Shown one piece after another: positions 6,887-60,541 of a stretch of 64,000 nt of DNA. Within the stretch, counting starts at the first letter, position 1, and each line of letters opens with the position of its first letter. This DNA comes from Eledone cirrhosa (lineage: Eukaryota): NCBI GenBank assembly GCA_964016885.1, contig OZ024764.1, positions 5,270,001-5,334,000 on the forward strand. The letters are read 5' to 3'. Under the pieces are notes generated by a model, which searched no databases, was not told the origin of the DNA, and saw only the letters and a list, made by a program, of their open reading frames with translations. The position numbers were made by a program, and so were the translations under genes.

Positions 6887-6928
6887 GAGACTTGATATGG
6901 AGAGAGATCTTTTATACTTCGATTATAG
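6887..6928 (+). CDS. Candidate micro-exon, 42 nt, phase 2-2: RLDMERDLLYFDY
   Basis: tttaactatattttttgtaatcacAG|gaga...ttatag|GTAAGT. Length is divisible by 3. Phase 0 has TGA. Confidence 0.7.
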
Positions 6929-7041
6929 GTAAGTTTTAGTTTTACACACTATCTAACCTTTATACAATCTGCTCCTTCCCGTCTCTCTCTCTCTCTCTCT
7001 CTATTGCTCCAGTTTACTCAGCTGTAGAAATGAGATGATAG

Positions 7042-7074
7042 GATATGCTTCACTAATATAAAAAAGAAATTGAT
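7042..7074 (+). CDS. Candidate micro-exon or pseudo-exon, 33 nt, phase 2-2: ICFTNIKKKL; original acceptor replaced
   Basis: Paralog of the 24338-24367 exon (+3 nt) with an intact GTAAGT donor. Upstream is SINE-derived gagatgatAG with no adjacent pyrimidine tract. Confidence 0.45.
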
Positions 7075-7462
7075 GTAAGTGTTACCTTAACATACTGTCT
7101 AACCATTGTTTAATCTGCTCCTTCCTCTACCTCTCCCTTTATACACACACACACATATATACCCCTATATATATATGTATACACACACACACACAAATAT
7201 ATACACATATATACACACATATATATATAATCACATATATATATACATATATACAAGCGAGACACGGCCTGCTGACCAATCTCGCCTTAAGTGGGACAAA
7301 ACCGTCCAACCCATGCTAGCATGGAAGATGGACTTTAAATGATGATGATATATACACACTGACACATATATATACATATATATATACACATATATATACG
7401 CATATATTTATACATATATATATATACACATATATATACGCATATATATATATATATATATA

Positions 7463-7575
7463 TGAGTTCAAGTCCACCGAGGTTAACTTTGCCTTTCATC
7501 TTTACGAGGTCGATAAAATAAAGTACCAGTGGTGTACTGGGGTAATCGCTGGCCTTGTGCCAAAAGTAGAAACTA
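7463..7575 (+). mobile_element. 5'-truncated copy of the same SINE (also ~10184, 24716, 27434, 36561, 39263, 51986, 54706)
   Basis: gagttcaagtcc..gaggttaactttgcctttcatc...tcgataaaataaagtaccagt...ggccttgtgccaaaagtagaaac. Confidence 0.75.
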
Positions 7576-7688
7576 TAATTATATATATATAACCAAAGAT
7601 TAATATAGTTCGTTGATTACTCAACGAATACAGTTGTACAATAGATTAGAAGAACTCAACAGTGAAAGTTTTCCTGGACTTTTTAATA

Positions 7689-7942
7689 TTAACAAATGAA
7701 AAATATTCTCATAATCAAAATATATACTTTATTATATATATTTCAAAGGTATATGACATACCTCTACGGTCTTGATTCTTTAATTCCAGTATTGCAGTCA
7801 CTGCCAATACTGGAATTGAAGAATCAAGACCGTAGCGCTATGTCATAATCATATATTTTGTCTGATGAGGACGTACTGAAAAAACAACAATATATATAAT
7901 ATAGTATATATTTTGATTATGCGAATACTTTTCATTTGTTAA
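7689..7942. repeat. 254-bp AT-rich fold-back with a degenerate CTGATGA..GAAA core; copies 24944-25197, 36792-37045, 52212-52465
   Basis: Outer arms ttaacaaatgaaaaatattc.../...ttcatttgttaa and inner arms tatgacata..ccagtattg/caatactgg..tatgtcata. Confidence 0.85.
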
Positions 7943-7953
7943 CATTTTGAATA

Positions 7954-8005
<52 letters not shown>

Positions 8006-8071
8006 AGGTAAAATGAATAATGAAAGAGTTGCAAGCCTTTAAAACATATCTTTATAAAGCTCTTACATATG

Positions 8072-8129
<58 letters not shown>

Positions 8130-9812
8130 TCATTATCATTTTATGTCCGCTTTTCCCTGCTTGCAAGGGTAGGGCTCTCACCACCACTGGCCATGTTTTT
8201 CGTGGTCTTCCTTTTACTGGGATTTTTTAGCACCTCTTTACCCAGCAGTCATCCTCGATGCGCATCACTTGTCCATACCATCTCAGTCTTCTCTCCTGCA
8301 CACCACAACTCATCCCCAGTTTCTCTCTCAACTCATCTATGGTCTTGTCGTTCACGCACATTGACACACACACACACACACATATATATATATTAATTCT
8401 ATTGACTGATTAATAGCTCTTGTTAATTTTAAAACCATTCTGTTGAGAGCTTAATTCGTTCTGTGATATTTTGCAATTTTGCAATAACACACATACTGAA
8501 TTCATCCGCCAAAACTAAGGGCTGCCCCCCCCCCCCCTGTGAAGCCCCACGTGGGTTTTGATAACGGTCAGTCCTTGGCTTGGCACTGAACTAAAAGGCT
8601 GTTGAGAAAGTGACTTCCTTGTTCGATCATCATACCAAAAGCTTAACATTATTTGTCTAAGTAGACAGTACTTGATTTAGGAGTTGCAGAAACCCAATAC
8701 TGGATATTACCAACCTTCCAGGGGTCCGGGTATAATTTTCCATCATATTTTATTTGTTTTACTCGAATTACTTGGTCGTGTCTATGGCTGTGCGGATAAT
8801 TGTTTAACCATCGTCTCAGTGTGTTTGGCCTTTTAACTTATGTTGTTGCTCTAGTTCACTAGCTTCTATGGAGCGCCTGCCACACATCTCGGAAGTTGTT
8901 TTTCGTTAATTTCCAATAGCAGAAATGCAATTCTCGCTAATTTATATATATATATATATATATATATACACGTATAAGGGATAACAAAATATCGTTATAG
9001 GTAATCCAGGTAGAAGTTGTGAATACTCTGTATTGTGGTTAGTCTTAGTCTACGGCGTTGTTTGACTCAACAAGAGGTTTCCGTAGGTGGCAAGTATTTG
9101 AGTTCTCTTGAATTTCTATGTAAGTTTATCTTGGAGTAATAATATTGAAAGCGTGAAGAATAACATGGTCAACAGTACAAAAGAAGGTTTTTATTTACAG
9201 TATTAACAATTGTTTCACTGATTAAGTTGTCTAAAAATCGCTGAAAACTTAAAGCTGTGCCACTCAATCTACTATATATATTGGAAGTGGTCGGACGTTG
9301 TATATTTAAGTAAATAAGTAGGTGTAGTCGGATAAACGTCGAAACGGCTTGGTAGAATGCAGCGAAAATTTACACAGTTATGCAGAATTGTAGCAGTTAA
9401 TGATGATATATATGTAAAAGAAATAGGATTTCGCTTCAAGCATATCTTTATACAATATGTATAAATATTTTGTATCTCCAAAGAAATACGGTTTTAGGAA
9501 GCCTTAGCTCTGCAAACCCTGGGGGGCTAACGTCCTCTGGTGATGTCCAGCAGAAGCAAGGGGGACAACCGTCTATGCATTTCAGGCTTAACTGACCATC
9601 GTCTGGACAGTCCCTCCCACTGCTTGCGACTGCTGGCCAGTTAAGCGTGAAATGCATAGACGGTTGTCCCCCTTGCTTCTGCTGGACATCACCAGAGGCC
9701 TTGAAACCCTAAGTCCCTTTTGCTCTGTGTATGAACAGAAATAAATAATGTAATATATATATATGTATGTGTGTATCTATTTATATATTTAACTATTTTT
9801 TTCTCATTACAG

Positions 9813-9845
9813 CACCAATCATTCCTTCGCTTACAAGAAATTTAT
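9813..9845 (+). CDS. Candidate micro-exon, 33 nt, phase 2-2: TNHSFAYKKF
   Basis: tttaactatttttttctcattacAG|cacc...tttat|GTAAGT. Confidence 0.75.
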
Positions 9846-10894
9846 GTAAGTGTTACCTTAACAAACTGTCTAACCATTGTTTAATCTGCTCCTTCCTCTA
9901 CCTCTCCCTTTATACACACACACACATATATACCCCTATATATATATGTATACACACACACACACAAATATATACACATATATACATATATATATACACA
10001 CATATATATACATATATACAAGCGAGACACGGCCTGCTGACCAATCTCATCTTAAGTGGGACAAAACCGTCCAACCCATGCTAGCATGGAAGATGGACTT
10101 TAAATGATGATGATATATATACACTGACACATATATATACATATATACAAATATATATACGCATATATCTATATATATATATATGAGTTCAAGTCCGCCG
10201 AGGTTAACTTTGCCTTTCATCTTTACGAGGTCGATAAAATAAAGTACCAGTGGTGCACTGGGGTAATCGCTGGCCTTGTGCCAAAAGTAGAAACTATATT
10301 TATATATATATAACCAAAGATTAATATGGTTCGTTGATTACTCAACGAATACAGTTTTACAATAGATTAGAAGCACTCAACAGTGAAATTTTCCTGCAGT
10401 TTTTAATATTATTCAAAATATTAACAAATGAAAAATATTCTCATAATCAAAATATATACTTTATTATATACATTTCAAAGGTATATGACATACCTCTACG
10501 GTCTTGATTATTCAATTCCACTATTGGCAGTGACTATATATTTATAGGCAAAATGAATAATGAAAGAGTTGCAAGCCGTTAAAACATATCTTTATAAAGC
10601 TCTTACATATGTTATATATATATATATCATCATCATCATTATATGTCCGCTTTTCCCTGCTTGCAAGGGTAGGGCTCTCACCACCACCGGCCATGTTTTT
10701 TGTGGTCTTCCTCTACTGCGTCTTCCTTCTACTGGGATTTTTTAGCACCTCTTTACCCAGCGGTCATCCTCGATGCACATCACTCGTCCATACCATCTCA
10801 GTCTTCTCTCCTGCACATCACAACTTATCCCCAGTTTCTCTCTCAACTCATCTATGCTCTTGTCGTTCACGCACATTGACACACACACATACAC

Positions 10895-10925
<31 letters not shown>

Positions 10926-11254
10926 TATAAGGGATAACAAAATATCGTTATAGGTAATCCAGGTAGAGGTTGTGAATACTCTGTATTGTGGTTAGTCTTA
11001 GTCTACGGCATTGTTTGACTCAACAAGAGGTTTCCGTAGGTGGCAAGTATTTGAGTTCTCTTGAATTCCTATGTAAGTTTATCTTGGAGTAATATTGAAA
11101 GCGTGAAGAATAACATGGTCAACAGTACAAAAATAGGTTTTTATTTACAGTATTAACAATTGTTTCACTGATTAAGTTGTCTAAAAATTGCTGAACACTT
11201 GAAGCTGTGCCACTCAATTTTAAATATGTTGTTAGCTTAACCAGATCATCAGAA

Positions 11255-11321
<67 letters not shown>

Positions 11322-11799
11322 TACAAATTATGTCCATAGAACCATTTGATAAGATATATACACCATTTCCTCTCCCAATTAGCATAATCAACCACACAAA
11401 AAATCAATTAGGCCAGGCTATAAGATTAAAAGGCACCTATGATAAAATAGTAGATAAATAAACGACAGCATTTCAATAGCATGTGGAAATCAATTAAATA
11501 TATCGTCAACCATACACAATTAGGTATAAAATTAAAGTTAGAAGAAAAAATGCATATACACATACCAGGATTACGTTTCTACGCTTTAGGGTTTCGTTTG
11601 CATTTGGAAATATACTATCAAGGATAAATTCGATATAAATTCTATAAATTTATCAAGGATAAATTTATAGTATATTGCTCTGATTATTTAATTTATTAAT
11701 TCATCATTGAGCCACATCGTGAATGGTTGCCAAAAACATATATATCTATGACTTTGTCTAGTTTGTGTATATGTAAATCTTTATATTGATTGTTCCTTA

Positions 11800-14580
11800 T
11801 GTAGCACAGCCTTTCAGATTCCATCTTTGCGCACAAGTCTACAGCAAGCTGGTTGAAGAGTACTCTTGCACGGTGGAACAGCAACGTAGTAAGTAAGGCA
11901 ATCAAAGATATGAAGATGGGGAAGGCAACCGGTCCATCGGGTATAGCTGCCGAGATGCTGAAGGCATCTGGGTCTGTAGGTCACACTATAACCACACGTA
12001 TTGTTAACCAGGTAATACTAGAAGGTGTCATACCAAAAGATTGGTGCAGTAGCATCATTGTCAACTGCTACAAAAGTAAAGGTGATGCACTAGATAGAGG
12101 AAACTATAGAGGTATAAAGCTGATGGACCAGGTCATGAAAGTAACAGAAAGAGTTATAGCACAGTTGAAGAGGCACCACTGATGCCCTCTTCCTTGTCAG
12201 GCAGTTACAGGAAAAGTACCTAGCTAAAAGTAAGCCACTCTACCTGGCATTTGTCGACCTTGAGAAAGCCTTTGACAGAGTTCCACGTGCTGTAATCTGG
12301 TGGGCTCTTAGAAAACTAGGAGTAGATGAATAGCTTGTGAAAGTGGTACAAGCCATGTATAGGGGAGCAGTCAGCAAAGTTAGGATTAGCAATGAGTATA
12401 GCGAGGAATTTAGCGTACAGGTTGGGGTCCATCAGGGCTCTGTTCTTAGCCCCCTCCTGTTCATCATTGTCCTGCAGGCAATAACGGAGGACTTTAAGAC
12501 CGGATGCCCATGGGAACTCCTGTATGCTGATGACCTCGCACTTATAGCTGAATCTATGGTAGAACTAGAGAAGAAATTCCAAACTTGGAAGCAGGAACTA
12601 GAAAGAAAGGGTCTCAAAGTCAACATGACAAAGACTAAGGTCCTTGTAAGTAGACGAGAAAACAGAACCCAGATCCCCTCAGGGAAATGGCCTTGCTCAG
12701 TATGTAGGAACTCCATTCTCTGCCCCAAATGCAAACAATGAGTACACAAGAGATGTAGCGGGATCTCAGGAAGCTTAATTAAGAATGTAGGCTTCACATG
12801 CAGCAGCTGTGCTGGGACAGCAAGCAGCAAACAGCCACAGGAAACAAGTACCACCAATCTCTGGGAGGGCTCTGTAGAAACAGTAGACAGCTTCTGCTAC
12901 CTAGGTGACCGAATTAGCAGCGGAGGTGGGTGTTCAGAAAGTACAATAACTAGGGTAAGAATGGAATGGAAGAAGTTTAGGGAACTACTATCACTGCTAG
13001 CTGCAAAAGGCTTCTCCCTCAAAATGAAAGGCAGACTGTATGATGCGTGTATCCGAACAGCGATGTTGCATGGTAGTGAGACCTGGGCTCTGAAGGTGGA
13101 AGACTTACGTAGATTAGAGAGAAACGAAGCCTGCATGCTCCGATGGATGTGTAACAGTAATATACGCGAACGACAAAGCATAAATGAATTGAGAGACTGA
13201 GCATAAGAGGAATCAAATGCTGTGTGCAGGAGAGGCGGTTGCGCTGGTATGGACATGTGATGCGTATGAAGGATGACAGCTGCATAAAAAGGTGCAGAGC
13301 ACTAGAAGTCGATGGAAACCGCGGAGTGGAGTGACCCAAGATGAGGAGAGAAAGAGTGTGAGAGAGAGAGAGTGAGATAAAGAGAGGGAGTGAAAGAGAG
13401 AAATAGAGGGATTGAGAGAGATACATTAAAACAATAACAGAAGGTCTGACTGGAGAATTTACTTTAGAATTTTAAGAGAAAAGAGGAAGGTTTCAGACTT
13501 CTGGAATTCCTTCACGAAAATGTCCTATATATCTGGAACACAAACTTCAAAAAATGAGACAACCACTTAATAACCTATAGATCATGTGAGCCCACCAGCT
13601 AGATAGATTTCATTGTTACCAGAAGACAGAGTGACTGTTATAAACACAATGTCCCTCCCTAGTGAAGAATGCACCTCCCAAAATACCTTAGAAGACAACC
13701 TGGAAGAAAAGAGTAGAGATCAAAATCAAAAGGTCTTAAAGTCAATTTGGTAAAGACTAAAGTTCTAGTAAGTAGAAAGGAAAACTGGGCCCAGATCTCT
13801 TCAGGTAAACTGTCCTGCTCAGTGTGCAGAAAAGGAGTAGGTAGAAATTCCCATCCTATGTCCCATATAGAAATGATGGGTACACAAAAGATGTTGTGGG
13901 ATCTCAGGGAGGCTAACAAAGAACGTAGCTTCTACATGTGGCCAATGAACAGGAGCAGTAAATAACAAGAACTCTCAGGTTACAATCTCCTTCAAATACC
14001 CAGAAGTCTCTGTAGAGGTGGTAGATAGTTTCTGTTACCTAGGTGACTAAATCAGCAGTGGAGTAGGGTGGTCCAAAAATTCAGTAACCAGAGTGAGATT
14101 AGATTGGAGAAAGTGCAGGGATCTACTACTACTGCAAACTACAAAACATTTTTCCATCAAAATGAAGGGCAGACTGTATGACGCAGGTATACAAACAACA
14201 ATGTTGCACAGCAGCGAGACCTGGGCACTGTGTGTAGAAGATCTGTAAAGATTGGAAAGAAATGAGCCTCCATGCTTCAATGGATGTGCCATAGTAATAT
14301 ATGCAAATGGCAAAACATAAATGTACTGTGAGAGGATTTAGGCATAAGAGGGATTAGATGCAGTGTGCAGGAGTGGGATTGTTTTGGTATAGACATGTGA
14401 TGTGTATGAAGGGTGACAGCTGTATAAAAAGGTGCCAAACGCACAAAGTTGACAGAGGCCGTGGAGTGGGCAGGTCTAGGAAGACTTGGGATGAGGTAAG
14501 GAAAGCTGACTTTGTACAATTACACCTAGCTAAGGCAATGACACAGGATGGTGACCTCTGGCGCTATGCACAATTATAGA
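11800..14580 (+). mobile_element. Two decayed RTE LINE fragments (~11800-13340 with YADD; ~13440-14580)
   Basis: GKATGPSGIAAEMLK, NYRGIKL, GVHQGSVLSP, LLYADDL, with multiple stops and frameshifts. Confidence 0.9.
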
Positions 14581-14782
14581 GGACTACATCCACAATCCAC
14601 CAGACATTTTCCCTACCAACACCCCACACAAGTTCCCAAACCTCACCATAAAGTGGTCCCGCTGCAGCCATGACAAACGTGTCCAGTCCACACTGTACAG
14701 TGGTCTTGTAGGTGTCTTGCCAAAAATCAATATTGGGCCTTAAAACCTTGAGTCCCTTTTGTTCTGTGTATGAACATAAATA

Positions 14783-15117
14783 ATTGTTTCTAGTTTTGGC
14801 ACAAGGCCAGCAATTATCCAGTGCATTACTGGTACTTTATTTTATCGACCCCGTAAGGATGAAAAGCAAAGTTAACCTCGGCGGGATTTGAACTCAGATC
14901 ATACAAGGAGGTAACTATGCTTCAAAGCATGGCGTCCGACTCTCTACCGATACTGCCAATCCACCGCCTGAACATAAATAAATAATTGGTTCTACTTTAG
15001 GCACAAGGCCAGCAATTACCTAGTACATTACTGGTACTTTATTTTATCGACTCCGTAAGGATGAAAGGCAAAGTCAACCTCGGAGGGATTTGAACTCAGA
15101 TCGGAAAGGGACGTAAC
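14783..15117 (-). mobile_element. Two tandem tRNA-like SINE copies (copies ~28461-28795, ~43843-44177, ~60086-60420)
   Basis: Minus-strand A box TGGCAGTATCGG and B box GAGTTCAAATCC. Inserted in the aacataaataa motif upstream of the 42-nt exons. Confidence 0.75.
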
Positions 15118-15197
15118 TAAATAAATAATGTAGTATATATATATATATTTGTGTGTGTATCTATTTATATATTTAAGTATATTTTTTGTAATCACAG

Positions 15198-15239
15198 GAC
15201 TGATACAGAGGAGGGTACCGCTCCAGAAAATAATGACGA
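15198..15239 (+). CDS. Candidate micro-exon, 42 nt, phase 2-2: TDTEEGTAPENND
   Basis: attttttgtaatcacAG|gact...gacga|GTAAGT. Phase 0 is closed. Confidence 0.72.
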
Positions 15240-15551
15240 GTAAGTTTTACATACTATCTAACCATTATTCTATCTGTTCCTTCCCGTCTCTCTCTCTCTT
15301 TATATATATATATATATATATAGTAAGGTGTATTACTGGTTGTGTAAAACGGTCCAATAAATTTTTGTTAGCAATATTAAGTCTCCACGCTTTTGTATAT
15401 CTCCAATTCCATTCAAGGGAACAGCTAGATGATGTAAAACGGAGTATTTCTATCAAAATGAAAATCCGAAGGCAAGGTAAAATTTCCAATCATTTTAATC
15501 ACATCGTGATTAAAATGATTGGAAATCTTACCTTCCTTTGGATTTTCATTT

Positions 15552-15596
<45 letters not shown>

Positions 15597-15815: not shown

Positions 15816-15860
15816 AATATTGAACTAGTTTCGTTGTTGTTACAACTCATCAGCAATATT
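15816..15860 (-). ncRNA. Minimal type I hammerhead ribozyme motif
   Basis: Reverse complement of the 16546-16590 motif. Confidence 0.75.
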
Positions 15861-19476: not shown

Positions 19477-20840
19477 TATAGGGTAGGTTACCATAGGGCA
19501 GGTTACTGTAGGGTAGGATACTGTCTGGTAGGTTACCATAGGGTAGGTTACTGTAGGGTAGGTTACTGTAGTGTAGGTTACTGTAGGGTAGGTTACTATA
19601 GGGTAGGTTACTGTAGGGTAGATTACTCTAGGCTAGGTTACCATAGGGTAGGTTACTGTAGTGTAGGTTACCATAGGGTAGGTTACCACAGAGTAGGTGA
19701 CCATAGGGTATGTTATTATAGGGTAGGTAACTGTAGGTTAGGTTACTGTAGGGTAGGTTACCTTATGGTAAGTTACTATAGGGTAGGTTACCATAGTGTA
19801 GGTTACCTTATGGTAAGTTACTATAGGGTAGGTTACCATAGGGTAGGTTACCTTATGGTAGGTTACTTTATGGTAAGTTACTATAGGGTAGGTTACCATA
19901 GGGTAGGTTACCTTATGGTAAGTTACTATAGGGTAGGTTACCATAGTGTAGGTTACCTTATGGTAAGTTACTATAGGGTAGGTTACCATAGGGTAGGTTA
20001 CCTTAGTGTAGGTAAGAATAGGGTAGGTTACCATAGGTTAGGTTACTGTAGGGTAGGTTAGCATAAGGTAGGTTACCATAGGGTAGGTTACTGTAGGGTA
20101 GGTTACCATAGGGTAGGTTACTGTAGGTAGGTTACCGTAGGTTAGGTTACTGTAGGGTAGGTTAACATAGGGTTGGTTACCATAGGTTAAGTTCATATAG
20201 GTTGTTACCATATGGTAGGTTACTGTAGGGTAGGTTGCTATAGGGTAGGTTATCGTAGAGTAGGTTACCATAAGGTAGGTTACCGTAGGGTAGGTTACTA
20301 TAGGGTAGGGTATCATAGGATAGGTTACCATAAGGCAGGTTACCATAGAGTAGGTTACCTTAGGGTAGTTTACTATAAGATAGGTTACCATAGTGTAGCT
20401 TACCATAGGGTAGGTTGTTACCATAGGCAAGGTTACTATAGGGTGGGTTACCATAGGGTAGTTTATGATATGGTTGGTTACCATAGTGTAGGTTACTATA
20501 ACATAGGTTACCATAGTGTAGGATACCTTAGATTAGGTTACCACAGGATAGGTTACTGTAGGTTAGGTTACCATAGGTTAGGTTAGCAATGGGTAGGTTA
20601 CTATAGGTTGTTACCATAAGGTAGGTTACTGTATGGTGGGTTACCATAGGGTAGGGTACCATAAAGTAGGTTATTATAGTGTAGGTTACCTTAGGATAGG
20701 TAACCATAGGGTAGGTTACTATGGGGTAAGTTACCATAGGGTAGGTTCCCATAGGGTAGGTTAACATAAGCTAGGTTACCTCAGGGTAGGTTACCATACC
20801 ATAAAGTAGGTTACCATAGGTTTGTTAAGGTTAGGCTAGG
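19477..20840. repeat. 15-bp minisatellite (second block in this unit at ~22306-22837)
   Basis: Direct reading. Confidence 0.97.
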
Positions 20841-21412: not shown

Positions 21413-21439
21413 AAGAGAGATAGAGAGAAAGAGAGGGAG

Positions 21440-24337: not shown

Positions 24338-24367
24338 GATATGCTTCACTAATATAAAGAAATTGAT
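24338..24367 (+). CDS. Candidate micro-exon, 30 nt, phase 2-2: ICFTNIKKL
   Basis: tatttttctcattacAG|gata...ttgat|GTAAGT. Phases 0 and 1 both contain TAA, so only phase 2 is open. Confidence 0.75.
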
Positions 24368-27062: not shown

Positions 27063-27095
27063 CACCAAACCCTTTACCAAGTACGAGAATATTAT
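27063..27095 (+). CDS. Candidate micro-exon, 33 nt, phase 2-2: TKPFTKYENI
   Basis: ttttctcattacAG|cacc...attat|GTAAGT. Confidence 0.75.
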
Positions 27096-28875: not shown

Positions 28876-28917
28876 GACTGATACAGAGGAGGGTACCGCT
28901 CCAGAAAATAATGACGA
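28876..28917 (+). CDS. Candidate micro-exon, 42 nt, phase 2-2: TDTEEGTAPENND
   Basis: Identical to 15198-15239 with the same splice signals. Confidence 0.72.
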
Positions 28918-31338: not shown

Positions 31339-32627
31339 TATAGGGTAGGTTACCATACGGTAGGGTACTGTAGGGCAGGTTACCATAGGGCAGGTTACTG
31401 TAGGGTAGGATACTGTCTGGTAGGTTACCATAGGGTAGGTTACTGTAGGGTAGGTTACCTTGGGTAGGTTACTGTAGTGTAGGTTACTGTAGGGTAGGTT
31501 ACTGTATGGTAGATTACTCTAGGCTAGGTTACCATAGGGTAGGTTACTGTAGTGTAGGTTACCATAGGGTAGGTTACCACAGAGTAGGTTACCTTATGGT
31601 AGGTTACCTTATGGTAGGTTACCATAGGGTAGGTTACCTTATGGTAAGTTACTATAGGGTAGGTTACCATAGTGTAGGTTACCTTATGGTAAGTTACTAT
31701 AGGGTAGGTTACCATAGGGTAGGTTACCTTAGTGTAGGTGAGAATAGGGTAGGTTACCATAGGTTAGGTTACTGTAGGGTAGGTTACCATAAGGTAGGTT
31801 ACTGTAGGGTAGGTTACCATAGGGTAGGTTACTGTAGGGTAGGTTACCATAGGGTAGGTTACCATAGGGTAGTTTACCGTAGGTTAGGTTACTGTAGGGT
31901 AGTTTACCGTAGGTTAGGTTACTGTAGGGTAGGTTAACATAGGGTATGTTAGCATAGGGTTGGTTACCATAGGTTAAGTTCATATAGGTTGTTACCATAT
32001 GGTAGGTTACTGTAGGGTAGGTTGCTATAGGGTAGGTTATCGTAGAGTAGGTTACTATAAGGTAGGTTACCATAAGGTAGGTTACCGTAGGGTAGGTTAC
32101 TATAGGGTAGGGTATCATAGGATAGGTTACCATAAGGCAGGTTACCATAGAGTAGGTTACCTTAGGGTAGTTTACTATAAGATAGGTTACCATAGTGTAG
32201 CTTACCATAGGGTAGGTTGTTACCATAGGCAAGGTTACTATAGGGTGGGTTACCATAGGGTAGTTTATGATATGGTTGGTTACCATAGTGTAGGTTACTA
32301 TAACATAGGTTACCATAGTGTAGGATACCTTAGATTAGGTTACTGTAGGTTAGGTTACCATATGGTAGGTTACCATAGGTTAGGTTAGCAATGGGTAGGT
32401 TACTATAGGTTGTTACTGTATGGTGGGTTACCATAGGGTAGGGTACCATAAAGTAGGTTATTATAGTGTAGGTTACCTTAGGATAGGTAACCATAGGGTA
32501 GGTTACTATGGGGTAAGTTACCATAGGGTAGGTTCCCATAGGGTAGGTTAACATAAGCTAGGTTACCTCAGGGTAGGTTACCATACCATAAAGTAGGTTA
32601 CCATAGGTTTGTTAAGGTTAGGCTAGG
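31339..32627. repeat. 15-bp minisatellite (second block at ~34093-34624)
   Basis: Direct reading. Confidence 0.97.
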
Positions 32628-36122: not shown

Positions 36123-36200
36123 GAACACCACTAATTTCTCCGAAAAATTTATTACTTCTCTCCTATGCAACCTTCCCTCCAATGATTACAGTAAATTTAT
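36123..36200 (+). CDS. Candidate compound exon, 78 nt, phase 2-2: NTTNFSEKFITSLLCNLPSNDYSKF
   Basis: ttctcattacAG|gaac...tttat|GTAAGT. The first 30 nt match the 51598 exon (1 difference) and the last 33 nt resemble the 9813 exon. Confidence 0.72.
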
Positions 36201-38890: not shown

Positions 38891-38920
38891 TCCAACAGCT
38901 ACTACTTCCCTGAAATTTAT
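38891..38920 (+). CDS. Candidate micro-exon, 30 nt, phase 2-2: PTATTSLKF
   Basis: tttttttctcattacAG|tcca...tttat|GTAAGT. Phase 1 has TGA. Confidence 0.75.
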
Positions 38921-44257: not shown

Positions 44258-44299
44258 GACTGATACAGAGGAGGGTACCGCTCCAGAAAATAATGACGA
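44258..44299 (+). CDS. Candidate micro-exon, 42 nt, phase 2-2: TDTEEGTAPENND
   Basis: Identical to 15198-15239 with the same splice signals. Confidence 0.72.
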
Positions 44300-46754: not shown

Positions 46755-48219
46755 TATAGGGTAGGTTACCATACGGTAGGGTACTGTAGGGTAGGTTACC
46801 ATAGGGCAGGTTACTGTAGGGTAGGATACTGTCTGGTAGGTTACCATAGGGTAGGTTACTGTAGGGTAGGTTACTATAGGGTAGGTTACCTTGGGTAGGT
46901 TACTGTAGTGTAGGTTACTGTAGGGTAGGTTACTATAGGGTAGGTTACTGTAGGGTAGATTACTCTAGGCTAGGTTACCATAGGGTAGGTTACTGTAGTG
47001 TAGGTTACCATAGGGTAGGTTACCACAGAGTAGGTGACCATAGGGTATGTTATTATAGGGTAGGTAACTGTAGGTTAGGTTACTGTAGGGTAGGTTACCT
47101 TATGGTAAGTTACTATAGGGTAGGTTACCATAGTGTAGGTTACCTTATGGTAAGTTACTATAGGGTAGGTTACCATAGGGTAGGTTACCTTATGGTAGGT
47201 TACCTTATGGTAAGTTACTATAGGGTAGGTTACCATAGGGTAGGTTACCTTATGGTAAGTTACTATAGGGTAGGTTACCATAGTGTAGGTTACCTTATGG
47301 TAAGTTACTATAGGGTAGGTTACCATAGGGTAGGTTACCTTAGTGTAGGTAAGAATAGGGTAGGTTACCATAGGTTAGGTTACTGTAGGGTAGGTTACCA
47401 TAAGGTAGGTTACTGTAGGGTAGGTTACCATAGGGTAGGTTACTGTAGGGTAGGTTACCATAGGGTAGGTTACTGTAGGTAGGTTACCATAGGGTAGTTT
47501 ACCGTAGGTTAGGTTACTGTAGGGTAGGTTAACATAGGGTATGTTAGCATAGGGTTGGTTACCATAGGTTAAGTTCATATAGGTTGTTACCATATGGTAG
47601 GTTACTGTAGGGTAGGTTGCTATAGGGTAGGTTATCGTAGAGTAGGTTACTATAAGGTAGGTTACCATAAGGTAGGTTACCGTAGGGTAGGTTACTATAG
47701 GGTAGGGTATCATAGGATAGGTTACCATAAGGCAGGTTACCATAGAGTAGGTTACCTTAGGGTAGTTTACTATAAGATAGGTTACCATAGTGTAGCTTAC
47801 CATAGGGTAGGTTATCATAGGCAAGGTTACTATAGGGTGGGTTACCATAGGGTAGTTTATGATATGGTTGGTTACCATAGTGTAGGTTACTATAACATAG
47901 GTTACCATAGTGTAGGATACCTTAGATTAGGTTACCACAGGATAGGTTACTGTAGGTTAGGTTACCATAGGTTAGGTTAGCAATGGGTAGGTTACTATAG
48001 GTTGTTACCATAAGGTAGGTTACTGTATGGTGGGTTACCATAGGGTAGGGTACCATAAAGTAGGTTATTATAGTGTAGGTTACCTTAGGATAGGTAACCA
48101 TAGGGTAGGTTACTATGGGGTAAGTTACCATAGGGTAGGTTCCCATAGGGTAGGTTACCTCAGGGTAGGTTACCATACCATAAAGTAGGTTACCATAGGT
48201 TTGTTAAGGTTAGGCTAGG
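46755..48219. repeat. 15-bp minisatellite (second block at ~49685-50098)
   Basis: Direct reading. Confidence 0.97.
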
Positions 48220-51597: not shown

Positions 51598-51627
51598 GAA
51601 CACCACTAATTTCTCCGAAAAATGTAT
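51598..51627 (+). CDS. Candidate micro-exon, 30 nt, phase 2-2: NTTNFSEKC
   Basis: tatttttctcattacAG|gaac...tgtat|GTAAGT. Phase 0 has TAA. Confidence 0.75.
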
Positions 51628-52472
51628 GTAAGTGTTACCTTAACATACTGTCTAACCATTGTTTAATCTGCTCCTCCCTCTACCTCTCCCTTTATACACA
51701 CACACACATATATACCCCTATATATATATGTATACACACACACACACAAATATATACACATATATACATATATATATACACACATATATATATAATCACA
51801 TATATATATACATATATACAAGCGAGACACGGCCTGCTGACCAATCTCGCCTTAAGTGGGACAAAACCGTCCAACCCATGCTAGCATGGAAGATGGACTT
51901 TAAATGATGATGATATATACACACTGACACATATATATACATATATATATACACATATATATACGCATATATTTATATATATATATGAGTTCAAGTCCGC
52001 CGAGGTTAACTTTGCCTTTCATCTTTACGAGGTCGATAAAATAAAGTACCAGTGGTGTACTGGGGTAATCGCTGGCCTTGTGCCAAAAGTAGAAACTATA
52101 ATTATATATATATAACCAAAGATTAATATAGTTCGTTGATTACTCAACGAATACAGTTGTACAATAGATTAGAAGAACTCAACAGTGAAAGTTTTCCTGG
52201 ACTTTTTAATATTAACAAATGAAAAATATTCTCATAATCAAAATATATACTTTATTATATACATTTCAAAGGTATATGACATACCTCTACGGTCTTGATT
52301 CTTCAATTCCAGTATTGCAGTCACTGCCAATACTGGAATTGAAGAATCAAGACCGTAGCGCTATGTCATAATCATATATTTTGTCTGATGAGGACGTACT
52401 GAAAAAACAACAATATATATAATAAAGTATATATTTTGATTATGCGAATATTTTTCATTTGTTAACATTTTG

Positions 52473-52528
<56 letters not shown>

Positions 52529-52594
52529 AGGTAAAATGAATAATGAAAGAGTTGCAAGCCTTTAAAACATATCTTTATAAAGCTCTTACATATG

Positions 52595-52638
<44 letters not shown>

Positions 52639-52872
52639 TCATTATCATTTTATGTCCGCTTTTCCCAGCTTGCAAGGGTTGGGCTCTCACCACCACTGGC
52701 CATGTTTTTCGTGGTCTTCCTTTTACTGGGATTTTTTAGCACCTCTTTACCCAGCGGTCATCCTCGATGCGCATCACTTGTCCATACCATCTCAGTCTTC
52801 TCTCCTGCACACCACAACTCATCCCCAGTTTCTCTCTCAACTCATCTATGGTCTTGTTGTTCACGCACATTG

Positions 52873-52904
<32 letters not shown>

Positions 52905-54331
52905 TAATTCTATTGACTGATTAATAGCTCTTGTTAATTTTAAAACCATTCTGTTGAGAGCTTAATTCGTTCTGTGATATTTTGCAATTTTGCAATAACA
53001 CACATACTGAATTCATCCGCCAAAACTAAGGGCTGCCCCCCCCCCCCTGTGAAGCCCCACGTGGGTTTTGATAACGGTCAGTCCTTGGCTTGGCACTGAA
53101 CTAAAAGCCTGTTGAGAAAGTGACTTCCTTGTTCGATCATCATACCAAAAGCTTAACATTATTTGTCTAAGTAGACAGTACTTGATTTAGGAGTTGCAGA
53201 AACCCAATACTGGATATTACCAACCTTCCAGGGGTCCGGGTATAATTTTCCATCATATTTTATTTGTTTTACTCGAATTACTTGGTCGTGTCTATGGCTG
53301 CGCGGATAATTGTTTAACCATCGTCTCAGTGTGTTTGGCCTTTTAACTTATGTTGTTGCTCTAGTTCACTAGCTTCTATGGAGCGCCTGCCACACATCTC
53401 GGAAGTTGTTTTTCGTTAATTTCCAATAGCAGAAATGCAATTCTCGCTAATTTATATATATATATATATATATATATACACGTATAAGGGATAACAAAAT
53501 ATCGTTATAGGTAATCCAGGTAGAAGTTGTGAATACTCTGTATTGTGGTTAGTCTTAGTCTACGGCGTTGTTTGACTCAACAAGAGGTTTCCGTAGGTGG
53601 CAAGTATTTGAGTTCTCTTGAATTTCTATGTAAGTTTATCTTGGAGTAATAATATTGAAAGCGTGAAGAATAACATGGTCAACAGTACAAAAGAAGGTTT
53701 TTATTTACAGTATTAACAATTGTTTCACTGATTAAGTTGTCTAAAAATCGCTGAAAACTTAAAGCTGTGCCACTCAATCTACTATATATATTGGAAGTGG
53801 TCGGACGTTGTATATTTAAGTAAATAAGTAGGTGTAGTCGGATAAACGTCGAAACGGCTTGGTAGAATGCAGCGAAAATTTACACAGTTATGCAGAATTG
53901 TAGCAGTTAATGATGATATATATGTAAAAGAAATAGGATTTCGCTTCAAGCATATCTTTATACAATATGTATAAATATTTTGTATCTCCAAAGAAATACG
54001 GTTTTAGGAAGCCTTAGCTCTGCAAACCCTGGGGGGGGGGGGGCTAACGTCCTCTGCTGATGTCCAGCAGAAGCAAGGGGGACAACCGTCTATGCATTTC
54101 AGGCTTAACTGACCATCGTCTGGACAGTCCCTCCCACTGCTTGCGACTGCTGGCCAGTTAAGCGTGAAATGCATAGACGGTTGTCCCCCTTGCTTCTGCT
54201 GGACATCACCAGAGGCCTTGAAACCCTAAGTCCCTTTTGCTCTGTGTATGAACAGAAATAAATAATGTAATATATATATATGTATGTGTGTGTATCTATT
54301 TATATATTTAACTATTTTTTTCTCATTACAG

Positions 54332-54361
54332 TCCCACAACTACTACTTCCATGAAATTTAT
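54332..54361 (+). CDS. Candidate micro-exon, 30 nt, phase 2-2: PTTTTSMKF
   Basis: tttttttctcattacAG|tccc...tttat|GTAAGT. Phase 1 has TGA. Confidence 0.75.
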
Positions 54362-55785
54362 GTAAGTGTTACCTTAACAAACTGTCTAACCATTGTTTAA
54401 TCTGCTCCTCCCTCTACCTCTCCCTTTATACACACACACACACATATATACCCCTATATATATATGTATACACACACACACACAAATATATACACATATA
54501 TACATATATATATACACACATATATATACATATATACAAGCGAGACACGGCCTGCTGACCAATCTCGTCTTAAGTGGGACAAAACCGTCCAACCCATGCT
54601 AGCATGGAAGATGGACTTTAAATGATGATGATATATATACACTGACACATATATATACATATATATATACACATATATATACGCATATATCTATATATAT
54701 ATATATGAGTTCAAGTCCGCCGAGGTTAACTTTGCCTTTCATCTTTACGAGGTCGATAAAATAAAGTACCAGTGGTGCACTGGGGTAATCGCTGGCCTTG
54801 TGCCAAAAGTAGAAACTATATTTATATATATATAACCAAAGATTAATATGGTTCGTTGATTACTCAACGAATACAGTTTTACAATAGATTAGAAGCACTC
54901 AACAGTGAAATTTTCCTGGAGTTTTTAATATTATTCAAAATATTAACAAATGAAAAATATTCTCATAATCAAAATATATACTTTATTATATATATTTCAA
55001 AGGTATATGACATACCTCTACGGTCTTGATTATTCAATTCCACTATTGGCAGTGACTATATAGTTATAGGCAAAATGAATAATGAAAGAGTTGCAAGCCG
55101 TTAAAACATATCTTTATAAAGCTCTTACATATGTTATATATATATATATCATCATCATCATTATATGTCCGCTTTTCCCTGCTTGCAAGGGTAGGGCTCT
55201 CGCCACCACCGGCCATGTTTTTTGTGGTCTTCCTCTACTGCGTCTTCCTTCTACTGGGATTTTTTAGCACCTCTTTACCCAGCGGTCATCCTCGATGCAC
55301 ATCACTTGTCTATACCATCTCAGTCTTCTCTCCTGCACATCACAACTTATCCCCAGTTTCTCTCTCAACTCATCTATGCTCTTGTCGTTCACGCACATTG
55401 ACACACACACATACACATATATATATACATATATATATATATACACACACACATATAAGGGATAACAAAATATCGTTATAGGTAATCCAGATAGAGGTTG
55501 TGAATACTCTGTATTGTGATTAGTCTTAGTCTACGGCGTTGTTTGACTCAACAAGAGGTTTCCGTAGGTGGCAAGTATTTGAGTTCTCTTGAATTCCTAT
55601 GTAAGTTTATCTTGGAGTAATAATATTGAAAGCGTGAAGAATAACATGGTCAACAGTACAAAAAAAGGTTTTTATTTACAGTATTAACAATTGTTTCACT
55701 GATTAAGTTGTCTAAAAATTGCTGAACACTTGAAGCTGTGCCACTCAATTTTAAATATGTTGTTAGCTTAACCAGATCATCAGAA

Positions 55786-55824
<39 letters not shown>

Positions 55825-56177
55825 TACAAATTATGTCCATAGAACCATTTGATAAGATATATACACCATTTCCTCTCCCAATTAGCATAATCAACCACAC
55901 AAAAAATCAATTAGACCAGGCTATAAGATTAAAAGGCACCTATGATAAAATAGTAGATAAATAAACGACAGCATTTCAATAGCATGTGGAAATCAATTAA
56001 ATATATCGTCAACCATACACAATTAGGTATAAAATTAAAGTTAGAAGAAAAAATGCATATACACATACCAGGATTACGTTTCTACGCTTTAGGGTTTCGT
56101 TCGCATTTGGAAATATACTATCAAGGATAAATTCGATATAAATTCTATAAATTTATCAAGGATAAATTTATAGTATA

Positions 56178-56998
56178 CTAGCAGTAAAGCCCGGCGTTGC
56201 TCGGGGTCGCTCAGTAGCTGTGTTAAAGTTACAATGTTAAGTTTCTTTTTTGGCTTAAAAACTGTAGTGTCTACTGTGCAGACTTGCATGTGGTGTTTTT
56301 GATTAATATTCCCTCAACCAACAATATGCCTTATGAAGTTAAGAAAACATAACGATAAACCAAATGTTATAACAAAAGAGGATGCTGGGGATAAAAACTG
56401 CACTGGTTATTTATTAACAAAGATCGAAAATGTAAACACTGCAACGCAGAGAAAAACATTAGCGTAACCAAATTATCAGTTATGTCTGTCTGCACGCCTA
56501 TATCACCTCTCTGCACGACTGTCTGTCTGCACGCCTGAAATATTTGCTTGTTTTACGTAGTCTTTAAATAGACTTGTTTTCAAGTAAAAATATTGTTTTA
56601 AAATGCTTTTAAATGGAAATGAAGCAAAACGGAAGCTTAGTGTTCGAACTGATGAATTTTGCAGGTCAATATTTTGCTGGCTCGACAACTGTTCGTGTAT
56701 TGTATTGTGTTAATGTCATTTTAAACGCTGAGAAAGCCAGCGTAATTTTTTACGTAAGACGCTCAATGTAAACAGAACAAAGGGAAATAACTGATAACTT
56801 ACGCTCAAAAATCGATACATTATATTCGATTTCGTCACATAGGGTGGGTCAATTTGAAATTTTTTTTTTTCCCATGTCTTCGCTAGGGCTCAATGTACAA
56901 GTATAGCAATTTCGGTGCAATTCCGTGAGAGATTCTAAGAGGAGATGTGTGCCAAAAATCGATAGACAGACAGACAACCACAGTTTTATATATATAGA
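56178..56998 (-). mobile_element. Non-autonomous Helitron, 821 bp
   Basis: The minus strand begins TC and ends CTAG, with a subterminal hairpin CCCGAGCAACGCCGGG. It is inserted between host A and T with no TSD. The empty site tagtata|ttgctc is present at ~11675 and ~40735. Confidence 0.9.
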
Positions 56999-57123
56999 TT
57001 GCTCTGATTATTTAATTTATTAATTCATCATTGAGCCACATCGTGAATGGTTGCCAAAAACATATATATCTATGACTTTGTCTAGTTTGTGTATATGTAA
57101 ATCTTTATATTGATTGTTCCTTA

Positions 57124-59883
57124 TGTAGCACAGCCTTTCAGATTCCATCTTTGCGCACAAGTCTACAGCAAGCTGGTTGAAGAGTACTCTTGCACGGTGG
57201 AACAGCAACGTAGTAAGTAAGGCAATCAAAGATATGAAGATGGGGAAGGCAACCGGTCCATCGGGTATAGCTGCCGAGATGCTGAAGGCATCTGGGTCTG
57301 TAGGTCACACTATAACCACACGTATTGTTAACCAGGTAATACTAGAAGGTGTCATACCAAAAGATTGGTGCAGTAGCATCATTGTCAACTGCTACAAAAG
57401 TAAAGGTGATGCACTAGATAGAGGAAACTATAGAGGTATAAAGCTGATGGACCAGGTCATGAAAGTAACAGAAAGAGTTATAGCACAGTTGAAGAGGCAC
57501 CACTGATGCCCTCTTCCTTGTCAGGCAGTTACAGGAAAAGTACCTAGCTAAAAGTAAGCCACTCTACCTGGCATTTGTCGACCTTGAGAAAGCCTTTGAC
57601 AGAGTTCCACGTGCTGTAATCTGGTGGGCTCTTAGAAAACTAGGAGTAGATGAATAGCTTGTGAAAGTGGTACAAGCCATGTATAGGGGAGCAGTCAGCA
57701 AAGTTAGGATTAGCAATGAGTATAGCGAGGAATTTAGCGTACAGGTTGGGGTCCATCAGGGTTCTGTTCTTAGCCCCCTCCTGTTCATCATTGTCCTGCA
57801 GGCAATAACGGAGGACTTTAAGACCGGATGCCCATGGGAACTCCTGTATGCTGATGACCTCGAACTTATAGCTGAATCTATGGTAGAACTAGAGAAGAAA
57901 TTCCAAACTTGGAAGCAGGGACTAGAAAGAAAGGGTCTCAAAGTCAACATGACAAAGACTAAGGTCCTTGTAAGTAGACGAGAAAACAGAACCCAGATCC
58001 CCTCAGGGAAATGTCCTTGCTCAGTATGTAGGAAACGTGTAGGTAGGAACTCCATTCTCTGCCCCAAATGCAAACAATGAGTACACAAGAGATGTAGCGG
58101 GATCTCAGGAAGCTTAATTAAGAATGTAGGCTTCACATGCAGCAGCTGTGCTTGGACAGCAAGCAGCAAACAGGCACAGGAAACAAGTACCACCAATCTC
58201 TGGGAGGGCTCTGGAGAAACAGTAGACAGCTTCTGCTACCTAGGTGACCGAATTAGCAGCGGAGGTGGGTGTTCAGAAAGTACAATAAATAGGGTAAGAA
58301 TGGGATGGAAGAAGTTTAGGGAACTACTACCACTGCTAGCTGCAAAAGGCTTCTCCCTCAAAATGAAAGGCAGACTGTATGATGCGTGTATCCGAACAGC
58401 GATGTTGCATGATAGTGAGACCTGGGCGCTGAAGGTGGAAGACTTACGTAGATTAGAGAGAAACGAAGCCTGCATGCTCCGATGGATGTGTAACAGTAAT
58501 ATACGCGAACGACAAAGCATAAATGAATTGAGAGACTGAGCATAAGAGGAATCAAATGCTGTGTGCAGGAGAGGCGGTTGCGCTGGTATGGACATGTGAT
58601 GCGTATGAAGGATGACAGCTGCATAAAAAGGTGCAGAGCACTAGAAGTCGATGGAAACCGCGGAGTGGGGAGACCCAAGATGAGGAGAGAAAGAGTGTGA
58701 GAGAGAGAGAGTGAGAGAAAGAGAGAAATAGAGGGATTGAGAGAGATACATTAAAACAATAACAGAAGGTCTGACTGGAGAATTTACTTTAGAATTTTAA
58801 GAGAAAAGAGGAAGCTTTCAGACTTCTGGAATTCCTTCACGAAAATGTCCTATATATCTGGAACACAAACTTCAAAAAATGAGACAACTACTTAATAACC
58901 TATAGATCATGTGAGCCCACCAGCTAGATAGATTTCATTGTTACCAGAAGACAGAGTGACTGTTATAAACACAATGTCCCTCTTTAGTGAAGAATGCACC
59001 TCCCAAAATACCTTAGAAGACAACCTGGAAGAAAAGAGTAGAGATCAAAATCAAAAGGTCTTAAAGTCAATTTGGTAAAGACTAAAGTTCTAGTAAGTAG
59101 AAAGGAAAACTGGGCCCAGATCTCTTCAGGTAAACTGTCCTGCTCAGTGTGCAGAAAAGGAGTAGGTAGAAATTCCCATCCTATGTCCCATATAGAAATG
59201 ATGGGTACACAAAAGATGTTGTGGGATCTCAGGGAGGCTAACAAAGAACGTAGCTTCTATATGTGGCCAATGAACAGGAGCAGTAAATAACAAGAACTCT
59301 CAGGTTACAATCTCCTTCAAATACCCAGAAGTCTCTGTAGAGGTGGTAGATAGTTTCTGTTACCTAGGTGACTAAATCAGCAGTGGAGTAGGGTGGTCCA
59401 AAAATTCAGTAACCAGAGTGAGATTAGATTGGAGAAAGTGCAGGGATCTACTACTACTGCAAACTACAAAACATTTTTCCATCAAAATGAAGGGCAGACT
59501 GTATGATGCACAGCAGCGAGACCTGGGCACTGTGTGTAGAAGATCTGTAAAGATTGGAAAGAAATGAAGCCTCCATGCTTCAATGGATGTGCCATAGTAA
59601 TATATGCAAATGGCAAAACATAAATGTACTGTGAGAGAAATTAGGCATAAGAGGGATTAGATGCAGTGTGCAGGAGAGGGATTGTTTTGGTATAGACATG
59701 TGATGTGTATGAAGGGTGACAGCTGTATAAAAAGGTGCCGAACAAACAAAGTTGACAGAAACCGTGGAGTGGGCAGGTCTAGGAAGACTTGGGATGAGGT
59801 AAGGAAAGCTGACTTTGTACAATTACACCTAGCTAAGGCAATGACACAGGAGGGTGACCTCTGGCGCTATGCACAATTATAGA
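57124..59883 (+). mobile_element. Decayed RTE LINE fragments (unit 4 copy of 11800-14580)
   Basis: Near-identical ORF fragments. Confidence 0.9.
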
Positions 59884-60499
59884 GGACTACATCCACAATC
59901 CACCAGACATTTTCCCTACAAACACCCCACACAAGTTCCCAAACCTCACCATAAAGTGGTCCCGCTGCAGCCATGACAAACGTGTCCAGTCCACACTGTA
60001 CAGTGGTCTTGTAGGTGTCCTGCCAAAAATCAATATTGGGCCTTAAAACCTTGAGTCCCTTTTGTTCTGTGTATGAACATAAATAATTGTTTCTACTTTT
60101 GGCACAAGGCCAGCAATTATCCAGTGCATTACTGGTACTTTATTTTATCGACCCCGTAAGGATGAAAGGCAAAGTTAACCTCGGCGGGATTTGAACTCAG
60201 ATCATACAGGGAGGTAACTATGCTTCAAAGCATGGCGTCCAACCCTCTACCGATACTGCCAATCCACTGCCTGAACATAAATAAATAATTGTTTCTACTT
60301 TAGGCACAAGGCCAGCAATTACCTAGTACATTACTGGTACTTTATTTTATCGACCCCGTAGGATGAAAGGCAAAGTCAACCTCGGAGGGATTTGAACTCA
60401 GATCGGAAAGGGACGTAACTAAATAAATAATGTAATATATATATATGTATTTGCGTGTGTATCTATTTATATATTTAACTATATTTTTTGTAATCACAG

Positions 60500-60541
60500 G
60501 ACTGATACAAAGGAGAGTACCGCTCTAGAAAAGAATGAGGA
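60500..60541 (+). CDS. Candidate micro-exon, 42 nt, phase 2-2: TDTKESTALEKNE
   Basis: tttaactatattttttgtaatcacAG|gact...gagga|GTAAGT. Phases 0 (TGA) and 1 (TAG) are closed. Confidence 0.75.

Follow-up and report, generated by a model that had tools for sequence, protein, structure and literature searches.

A predicted array of 107 frame-symmetric micro-exons preceding the transmembrane segment of a neprilysin-like gene in Eledone cirrhosa

In Eledone cirrhosa, 107 small exon-like cassettes spread over 528 kb of contig OZ024764.1 (C25) are probably coding micro-exons of a single M13-family gene of ~760 kb, and would diversify its cytoplasmic tail by predicted skipping of the kind known from schistosome micro-exon genes (MEGs) and SmVAL6. 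The window analysed here, a stretch of 64,000 nucleotides (C25:5270001-5334000), lies wholly inside the array (C25:4871418-5399532), which reaches 398 kb upstream and 66 kb downstream of it. An initial annotation of the window had proposed that these are internal exons of one large gene, frame-symmetric and hypervariable, which multiplied by tandem duplication, and had named lengths not divisible by 3 and phase-2 stops at random frequency in further copies as an outcome that would speak against this. A scan of the flanking contig for such copies raised the count to 107 and supports the proposal: all 107 lengths are divisible by 3, and no cassette contains a stop in the phase-2 frame.

All 13 cassettes described in the window are real, and their coordinates, lengths (30, 33, 42 or 78 nt) and GTAAGT donors were reproduced exactly (Table 1), as were the stop counts, with 9 of 13 closed at offset 0, none at offset 1 and 5 at offset 2, the open frame being that of intron phase 2. 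They are, however, 13 of the 107 in the full array. The shared flanks ascribed to them hold in part, since "ccttgaaacc" lies upstream of 8 of 13, but the four copies in the third slot of the repeat unit (slot C) have another upstream flank. Similarly, the acceptor ascribed to every cassette is strong in 12 of 13, but at 7042 the acceptor block is missing altogether (pyrimidines make up 5 of 17 nt, against 11-14 elsewhere) and the cassette is probably weak or skipped; four copies of this sort occur in the whole array. The cassette flanks are young and repeat-rich. Over the entire array there are 36 minisatellite blocks, which may have served as crossing-over sites.

Table 1. Predicted exons and repeat blocks (positions are those of the window unless preceded by C25)
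Feature	Position	Strand	Remarks
C-type cassette exon, 42 nt	6887..6928	+	strongly diverged subtype (RLDMERDLLYFDY)
A-type cassette, 33 nt	7042..7074	+	donor intact, acceptor block lost; 113 nt behind previous exon
A-type cassette exon, 33 nt	9813..9845	+	YxxF motif at end
C-type cassette exon, 42 nt	15198..15239	+	acidic/Thr-rich
A-type cassette exon, 30 nt	24338..24367	+	basic; resembles last (juxtamembrane) exon of array
A-type cassette exon, 33 nt	27063..27095	+	with TxYxxI
C-type cassette exon, 42 nt	28876..28917	+	identical to 15198
A-type cassette exon, 78 nt	36123..36200	+	apparent fusion of A-slot 5' half and B-slot 3' end
A-type cassette exon, 30 nt	38891..38920	+	Thr-rich
C-type cassette exon, 42 nt	44258..44299	+	identical to 15198
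A-type cassette exon, 30 nt	51598..51627	+	
A-type cassette exon, 30 nt	54332..54361	+	Thr-rich
C-type cassette exon, 42 nt	60500..60541	+	
Minisatellite block, 15-bp G-rich	19478..20798	.	one per repeat unit
Further minisatellite blocks	1478-2431, 31340-32585, 46756-48177, 62984-63921		
Transmembrane exon	C25:5413283-5413395	+	entered in phase 2, 13,750 nt behind last cassette
19 M13-ectodomain exons	C25:5416317-5629521	+	VNAFY, HKIFH, ENIAD, stop

Along the array two cassette types, A and C, are interleaved, and several repeat units are near-identical triplicates. The exons are 27-78 nt long (9-26 codons) and fall into 7 length classes, whereas control lengths spread over the three remainders modulo 3 (2/2/2 and 2/3/2 for distinct flank lengths, 28/30/44 for spacers). 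In contrast to the open frame, the other two frames hold stops in 88 and 40 of the 107 cassettes. No cassette-cassette junction is able to form a stop, and inclusion of every cassette yields an open peptide of 1,292 aa. The 107 reduce to 56 distinct sequences encoding 50 peptides; stops occur in none of these in the open frame but in 42 and 22 of them in the other two frames, although the copies are related and so do not amount to 56 independent trials. In a test of 48 distinct exons, ~49% of shuffled versions were open. Strong acceptors are present in 103 of 107 cassettes, which rules out variable first exons of the protocadherin type; a splice site is damaged in 9 of 107, which weighs against our preferred interpretation. 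Spacers between strong-acceptor cassettes measure 953-9,942 nt, leaving no steric exclusion, and the mutually exclusive choice implied by the original analogy with Dscam1 is without support. A transposon origin was rejected, the cassette signature being confined to C25 (112 matches to two downstream patterns, 0 in reversed controls). Contig depth over assembled 31-mer copy number was ~5 in five of seven segments and ~9 in two, depth not being equal to copy number. In three sequencing runs from one sample, no cassette-cassette joint occurred among the joints listed, which are the smaller part of all joints; as the runs also cover introns, the reads behave as DNA and have no bearing on expression.

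Downstream of the array, on the same strand and outside the window, we identified 20 predicted constant exons (634 codons) with compatible phases throughout, AG/GT at every internal boundary, entry in phase 2 and a single terminal stop. By its sequence the host is a neprilysin-like member of the M13 family. VNAFY lies in the exon at C25:5453942, HKIFH in place of HExxH in that at C25:5618006, and QENIAD in that at C25:5624765. Four of 16 exon queries matched the Pfam M13 families at collinear positions, none over the whole-protein cut-off (Peptidase_M13_N, PF05649, E 0.0099; Peptidase_M13, PF01431, E 4e-05, 4e-04 and 0.013), and the last constant exon matched PDB neprilysin structures (E 1e-4). 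Homologue searches with single exons, which are weak, short queries, gave no matches; homologues were reached by a HMMER search with the last exon and a follow-up protein query (P0033). At E<=1, BLAST to Octopus sinensis XP_036361320.1 aligned 16 of 20 exons, some spuriously, against 4-8 for three arthropod M13 proteins; another near relative is O. sinensis XP_029655569.2 (MMEL1-like group). Genome-wide profile scans with PF05649 and PF01431 gave 19 and 9 matches on other contigs and none on C25, the host exons being unlisted. Since these scans are silent on the host and the cassettes are so short, standard annotation would miss this gene.

Behind the array come, in the same phase, a single hydrophobic exon and then the M13 ectodomain; the array itself has no hydrophobic segment (maximum 19-residue hydropathy 0.49, against 2.9 in the transmembrane exon). 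This arrangement predicts a type II membrane protein in which the array encodes the cytoplasmic N-terminal tail, and it speaks against the earlier reading of the variable region as extracellular and N-glycosylated. That reading could draw on the full-inclusion peptide, which has 37 N-x-S/T sequons and a Ser+Thr content of 24%, and on room for an upstream signal or anchor, as the start exon is not located (donor and ATG scans of C25:4810001-4871400 gave weak candidates alone). We nevertheless regard it as most improbable, as the sole hydrophobic segment lies behind the array, basic residues around it are more numerous on the array side, and the homologous O. sinensis modules are N-terminal of a single transmembrane segment, with no upstream signal peptide visible. 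One start-exon candidate, at 4860521, adjoins a high-copy repeat.

We linked the distinct cassettes in a minimum spanning tree and compared divergence along it between exons and flanks. A-type exons carried 96/1064 substitutions against 45/3257 in their flanks, and C-type exons 53/778 against 13/1812, so that exons diverged at 6-9 times the rate of intron flanks. In C-type exons pN exceeded pS (0.072 against 0.023, p=0.01; 39.5 replacements against 3.5 silent changes). Two results weigh against our preferred interpretation: close A-type pairs have a pN of 0.056, below a pS of 0.115, and stop avoidance along the tree is modest (p about 0.017 and 0.13). The A-type pS is 8 times the flank rate, for which positive selection on the peptide gives no explanation. 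This is what might be expected if few cassettes were spliced and the rest formed a germline (or somatic) donor pool, with short-tract gene conversion homogenising flanks and creating mosaic exons, and with a frame rule inherited from once-used donors. Reuse of 3' ends, with YKKF behind five different 5' halves and YENI behind three, would fit such a silent library, as would the transmembrane exon, which shows the same contrast between paralogues (65-72% identity in the exon against 93-99% in the flank). We consider it unlikely, however, since silent copies should collect frameshifts and stops, of which there are none in 107 although the flanks accept indels of any length, and since C-type changes are mostly replacements.

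Paralogues and homologues bear on two further explanations. The host gene (copy A) has three paralogues, of which B holds 6 cassettes and D at least 3, those of D having the same flanks but wholly different 36- and 42-nt exons (divisible by 3 and open in 3/3); none was found for C in the 6 kb examined or by exact patterns, the region upstream of C and D lying mostly outside the search. The HExxH position reads HKIFH in A, HEIFH in B and D, and HQIFH in C, and the terminal CxxW of M13 reads LxxW in A. The ectodomain of copy A, in which the catalytic Glu is replaced through one base in one assembly, is thus probably inactive. Between A and B the constant exons show 18 replacement changes and 4 silent ones, an about neutral ratio which, together with the loss in A of the catalytic Glu and a conserved Cys, is as expected of a relaxed duplicate. 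Copy A might then be decaying in an amplification-prone region, or the array might be over-expanded in the assembly, or B might be the other haplotype on the same contig; the near-identical triplicate units, the 97-99% identity of A and B and a satellite of 159 kb in one intron of A (5.9 kb in B) point in this direction. Yet mis-assembly cannot make 56 distinct exons and 50 peptides, all 20 constant exons are intact, decay would neither spare the frame nor focus change in exons, and collinear A-B identity stops near C25:4840935, leaving this explanation with little probability. It also seems improbable to us that most intact cassettes are constitutively included in one disordered tail of ~1,290 residues, which would vary in length and motif number by germline copy number between alleles or paralogues and not between transcripts. 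The low count in B, the open full-inclusion frame, the long spacers, and a strong acceptor with a consensus donor in 98 of 107 cassettes, nearly identical across copies, are compatible with this. But damaged copies persist, accurate inclusion of ~100 micro-exons across 528 kb would be unlikely given how splicing generally works, and the O. sinensis tails are only ~35-90 residues long, with two isoforms one module apart. The isoforms, XP_036361320.1 (X1, 777 aa) and XP_036361321.1 (X2, 763 aa), differ solely by a 14-residue tail module before the transmembrane segment, the size of the 42-nt cassettes in a comparison at the protein level, and XP_029639718.1 has three tandem 14-residue tail repeats. 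By analogy, the pair of isoforms lends indirect support to MEG-like exon skipping, which we regard as plausible.

For the favoured reading, skipping of coding micro-exons, we propose that the array began as two exons of phase 2-2, one acidic and 42 nt long, the other short, basic and juxtamembrane. Unequal crossing-over between units that carry a minisatellite would have multiplied this pair about fifty-fold, and the resulting exons would then have diverged far faster than their flanks while length and frame were kept. As any subset reads in frame, transcripts probably carry different subsets, and tails would vary in length, in charge and in how many tyrosine-based (YxxF/I/V) motifs they contain; 22 of 33 tyrosines have L/I/M/F/V at +3 (background 0.20), although the motifs share ancestry and are not independent. 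Such variation may adjust how an ectodomain that is probably non-catalytic is sorted or signals. A bolder version, doubtful but worth stating, would join a catalytically dead ectodomain acting as a binding module, cell-specific splicing of ~100 micro-exons writing ITSM/ITIM-like, endocytic and acidic motifs, and an arms race (in immunity, recognition or reproduction) under which copies or alleles range from 6 to >100 cassettes, giving Dscam-scale diversity on the inside.

If true, the favoured reading would place a MEG-like exon-skipping diversity generator outside flatworms, put hypervariability unexpectedly on the cytoplasmic side, and supply a concrete candidate for how cephalopods diversify their molecules, as well as a clear instance, inside one young array, of exons that outrun their own introns. 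Among the listings of the literature searched, mostly open-access, no prior description of a neprilysin-type micro-exon array in cephalopods appeared; octopus papers, in the portions available, mention neprilysin or metalloendopeptidase in passing. To our knowledge, the number of alternative exons exceeds that of any known M13 gene.

Arthropod Dscam1 is a gene for a cell-surface protein with some hundred duplicated alternative exons, which encode extracellular Ig half-domains and are mutually exclusive via docking/selector pairing. The host gene resembles it in exon number and setting; in contrast, its exons are small, symmetric, of two interleaved types and predicted to be cytoplasmic, with no sign of exclusivity. 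Among M13 proteins, ECE-1 varies its tail through alternative first exons, giving four isoforms, without a cassette array. The type II layout, VNAFY, the HExxH position and ENIAD are shared with neprilysin, but as many as 107 exons, and not just a few, would encode the tail here, and, unlike active M13 enzymes, copies A and C have Lys and Gln, respectively, in place of the catalytic Glu. Excerpts on the neprilysin family describe VNAFY and GENIAD motifs and invertebrate expansions with inactive members (PMC2259306). The available sections on schistosome MEGs report symmetric micro-exons in a repeat-rich setting, as here (107/107 symmetric), and raised dN/dS (PMC4350168), to which the fast exon divergence may be likened, with pN>pS in C-type exons only. 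MEG products are described there as mostly micro-exon-encoded, host-facing, carrying a signal peptide and restricted to platyhelminths (PMC4350168), whereas the variable part here precedes a membrane anchor, is predicted to be cytoplasmic and is attached to a peptidase-family body of ~630 residues. In the parts of the reports that treat it, SmVAL6 of Schistosoma mansoni has 38 exons and 35 isoforms in 67 clones, encodes a group 2 (intracellular) protein and carries tyrosines in its regulated exons (PMC2270263, PMC4350168). Both genes, as far as those parts describe SmVAL6, combine a conventional domain with a long series of small exons that share one phase. SmVAL6, however, has an SCP/TAPS domain and a C-terminal array in ~60 kb, whereas the E. 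cirrhosa gene has an M13 ectodomain and an N-terminal, membrane-proximal tail, with 107 cassettes over 528 kb in very recent tandem units and splicing predicted from sequence.

All 13 cassettes (each a micro-exon with its conserved flanks) placed in the window by the initial annotation were recovered with the same positions and lengths. The scan of the flanking contig that it had proposed enlarged the array to 107 cassettes on contig OZ024764.1 (C25; read without gaps from 4810001 to 5514000) of the 3.0 Gb Eledone cirrhosa assembly. The cassette array is real. It interleaves 54 C-type cassettes, every one 42 nt, with 53 A-type cassettes of 27, 30, 33, 36, 57 or 78 nt, giving 56 distinct sequences and 50 peptides. 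All 107 lengths are divisible by three; in the control, flank and spacer lengths scattered over all three residues modulo 3. Read in phase 2, with one base skipped, none of the 107 contains a stop, compared with 88 and 40 at offsets 0 and 2; in the window this frame is open in 13/13, as originally described, with stops at the other offsets in 9 and 5. No stop can arise at a cassette junction because no exon terminates in TA or TG. Signatures found downstream of cassettes are confined to C25: 104 belong to this array, 6 lie at 7.23-7.30 Mb in a copy on the minus strand and 2 at 25.15 Mb.

Strong acceptors and consensus donors were present in 98 of the 107 cassettes, with the donor altered in five and the acceptor lost in four. 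The cassette at window position 7042, counted among the 13, lacks its acceptor block, and the long upstream motif proposed as a shared part was present in 8 of the 13 rather than in all. Three 57-nt cassettes have lost four donor bases and remain multiples of three at the next GT; an internal acceptor-like AG lies 30 nt before it. The window, C25:5270001-5334000, is built as a mosaic from units of 12-18 kb; every unit carries a 15-bp minisatellite block. It also holds a 467-bp tandem repeat.

Coordinates of the array, its host gene (copy A) and related features
Feature	Location	Strand	Remarks
Cassette array	C25:4871418-5399532		107 cassettes
Transmembrane (TM) exon	C25:5413283	same as array	entered in phase 2, 13,750 nt past last cassette
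19 further constant exons	up to C25:5629521	same as array	downstream of TM exon
Candidate promoter and untranslated first exon	C25:4864515-4864935		6.5 kb 5' of first cassette
57-nt cassettes	C25:4902087, 5229117, 5252286
46-bp satellite, copy A	C25:5458400-5617369		fills intron preceding exon at 5617369
46-bp satellite, copy B	C25:7168113-7174013		5.9 kb
Copy B	C25:7150001-7332033	minus	inverted duplicate of A, 97-99% identical; HEIFH
Paralogue C	C25:7498748-7538295		HQIFH
Paralogue D	C25:25147305-25339188		HEIFH
467-bp tandem repeat	window:16218-17353		2.4 copies, 99% identical
More conventional M13 genes	C24:7510384-7821460; contigs C3, C2		three, clustered, on contig C24

The constant exons of the host gene are compatible in every phase and comprise 634 codons with a single terminal stop; their boundaries were set by splice-site scoring and likeness to motifs of M13 (the neprilysin peptidase family), and one small exon may be absent. 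Pfam M13 models were matched collinearly by 4 of 16 constant-exon queries, the last exon matches neprilysin structures, and VNAFY and ENIAD motifs were found; the nearest proteins found were Octopus sinensis neprilysin/MMEL1-like RefSeq models, which fits an octopod host. By sequence, the predicted protein belongs to the M13 family but not to its active peptidases; the zinc motif of copy A, HKIFH, indicates that this copy is probably inactive. Inactive members are described in invertebrate M13 expansions (PMC2259306). The catalytic Glu is absent from two of the four copies, through different substitutions. Donor and ATG scans upstream of the array (C25:4810001-4871400) did not find a start exon. 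Translation could begin at a cassette junction, because 30 of 97 adjacent junctions create an in-frame ATG. The candidate promoter region combines a strong donor with a GC box and short tandem repeats. In copy A the 46-bp satellite is ~159 kb long, of which 55 kb was read and the remainder inferred from both ends; its unit consists of the acceptor and first bases of the exon at 5617369, making it an amplified splice junction that supplies thousands of decoy acceptors.

No hydrophobic stretch occurs in the joined cassettes (maximum hydropathy 0.49 vs 2.9 for the TM exon), and the final one is basic; most M13 proteins have a type II layout (PMC2259306). Together these points argue that the array encodes a cytoplasmic tail. 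The extracellular, glycosylated region suggested initially does not agree with a hydrophobic segment found only after the array; an extracellular location is very improbable, and the N-glycosylation sequons pointed out there would be left unused. YxxL/I/M/F/V motifs, which share ancestry, hold 22 of 33 tyrosines (background 0.20) and occur in 21 of 98 intact cassettes. Three match TxYxxV/I and four an ITIM-like pattern, and these matches are not independent in ancestry. D+E make up 26% of the residues in the acidic C-type exons, which are also rich in Ser/Thr. In the short tail of O. sinensis XP_029640079.1 (residues 1-35), YSEV occurs twice at a spacing of 14 residues, once in an ITIM-like context, which suggests that tyrosine-motif modules occur in other members of the octopus subfamily.

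We consider it probable that an ancestral exon pair was multiplied through unequal crossing-over of minisatellite-bearing units, that the copies diverged under frame constraint, and that combinatorial skipping would now vary the tail. Mean pairwise identity is 0.53 for A-type exons and 0.71 for C-type exons, against 0.94-0.99 in flanks; substitution rates (minimum spanning tree, distinct cassettes) are 0.090 vs 0.014 for A-type and 0.068 vs 0.007 for C-type exons and flanks. C-type changes are mostly replacements (pN 0.072, pS 0.023, p=0.01). In close A-type pairs replacements do not predominate (pN 0.056, pS 0.115), a sign of conversion or local hypermutation in addition to selection, and A-type exons look mosaic; that the cassettes are mostly a silent conversion library is nevertheless unlikely. 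Constitutive inclusion, with variation in germline copy number, is equally doubtful. Copy B has only 6 cassettes. O. sinensis MMEL1-like isoforms X1 and X2 differ by exactly one 14-residue tail module, giving indirect support to cassette splicing. RefSeq isoforms generally rest on RNA-seq. Another O. sinensis paralogue carries three tandem 14-residue repeats in its tail.

A relaxed duplicate or an assembly effect seems less likely still. Between A and B the constant exons show 18 replacement changes against 4 silent ones, a ratio close to the neutral expectation and one that a relaxed duplicate would also give, along with in-frame indels, 6 and 3 nt long; copy B, which may be a paralogue or second haplotype, contains an internal duplication of ~18 kb whose duplicates are separated by ~30 kb of 15-bp minisatellite. 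As in the cassettes, TM exons of A, C and D diverge more than their flanks (identity 0.65-0.72 vs 0.93-0.99), and C and D have strongly diverged TM exons between nearly identical intron flanks. In D, unrelated exons of 36, 42 and 42 nt, all open in phase 2, lie inside the same cassette flanks.

No earlier description of such a cassette array was found in the literature searched. Dscam concerns a different domain, and Dscam-like exclusivity was not seen as far as tested. The octopod array differs from the schistosome MEGs in its large constant body, its cytoplasmic variable part and the lack of a signal peptide seen, which sets it outside that class. After SmVAL6, the MEGs are nonetheless the next closest likeness. 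SmVAL6 joins a domain to small exons of the same phase, and 67 clones gave 35 isoforms, as reported in PMC2270263 and PMC4350168; the octopod array, known here from genomic sequence, would work alike.
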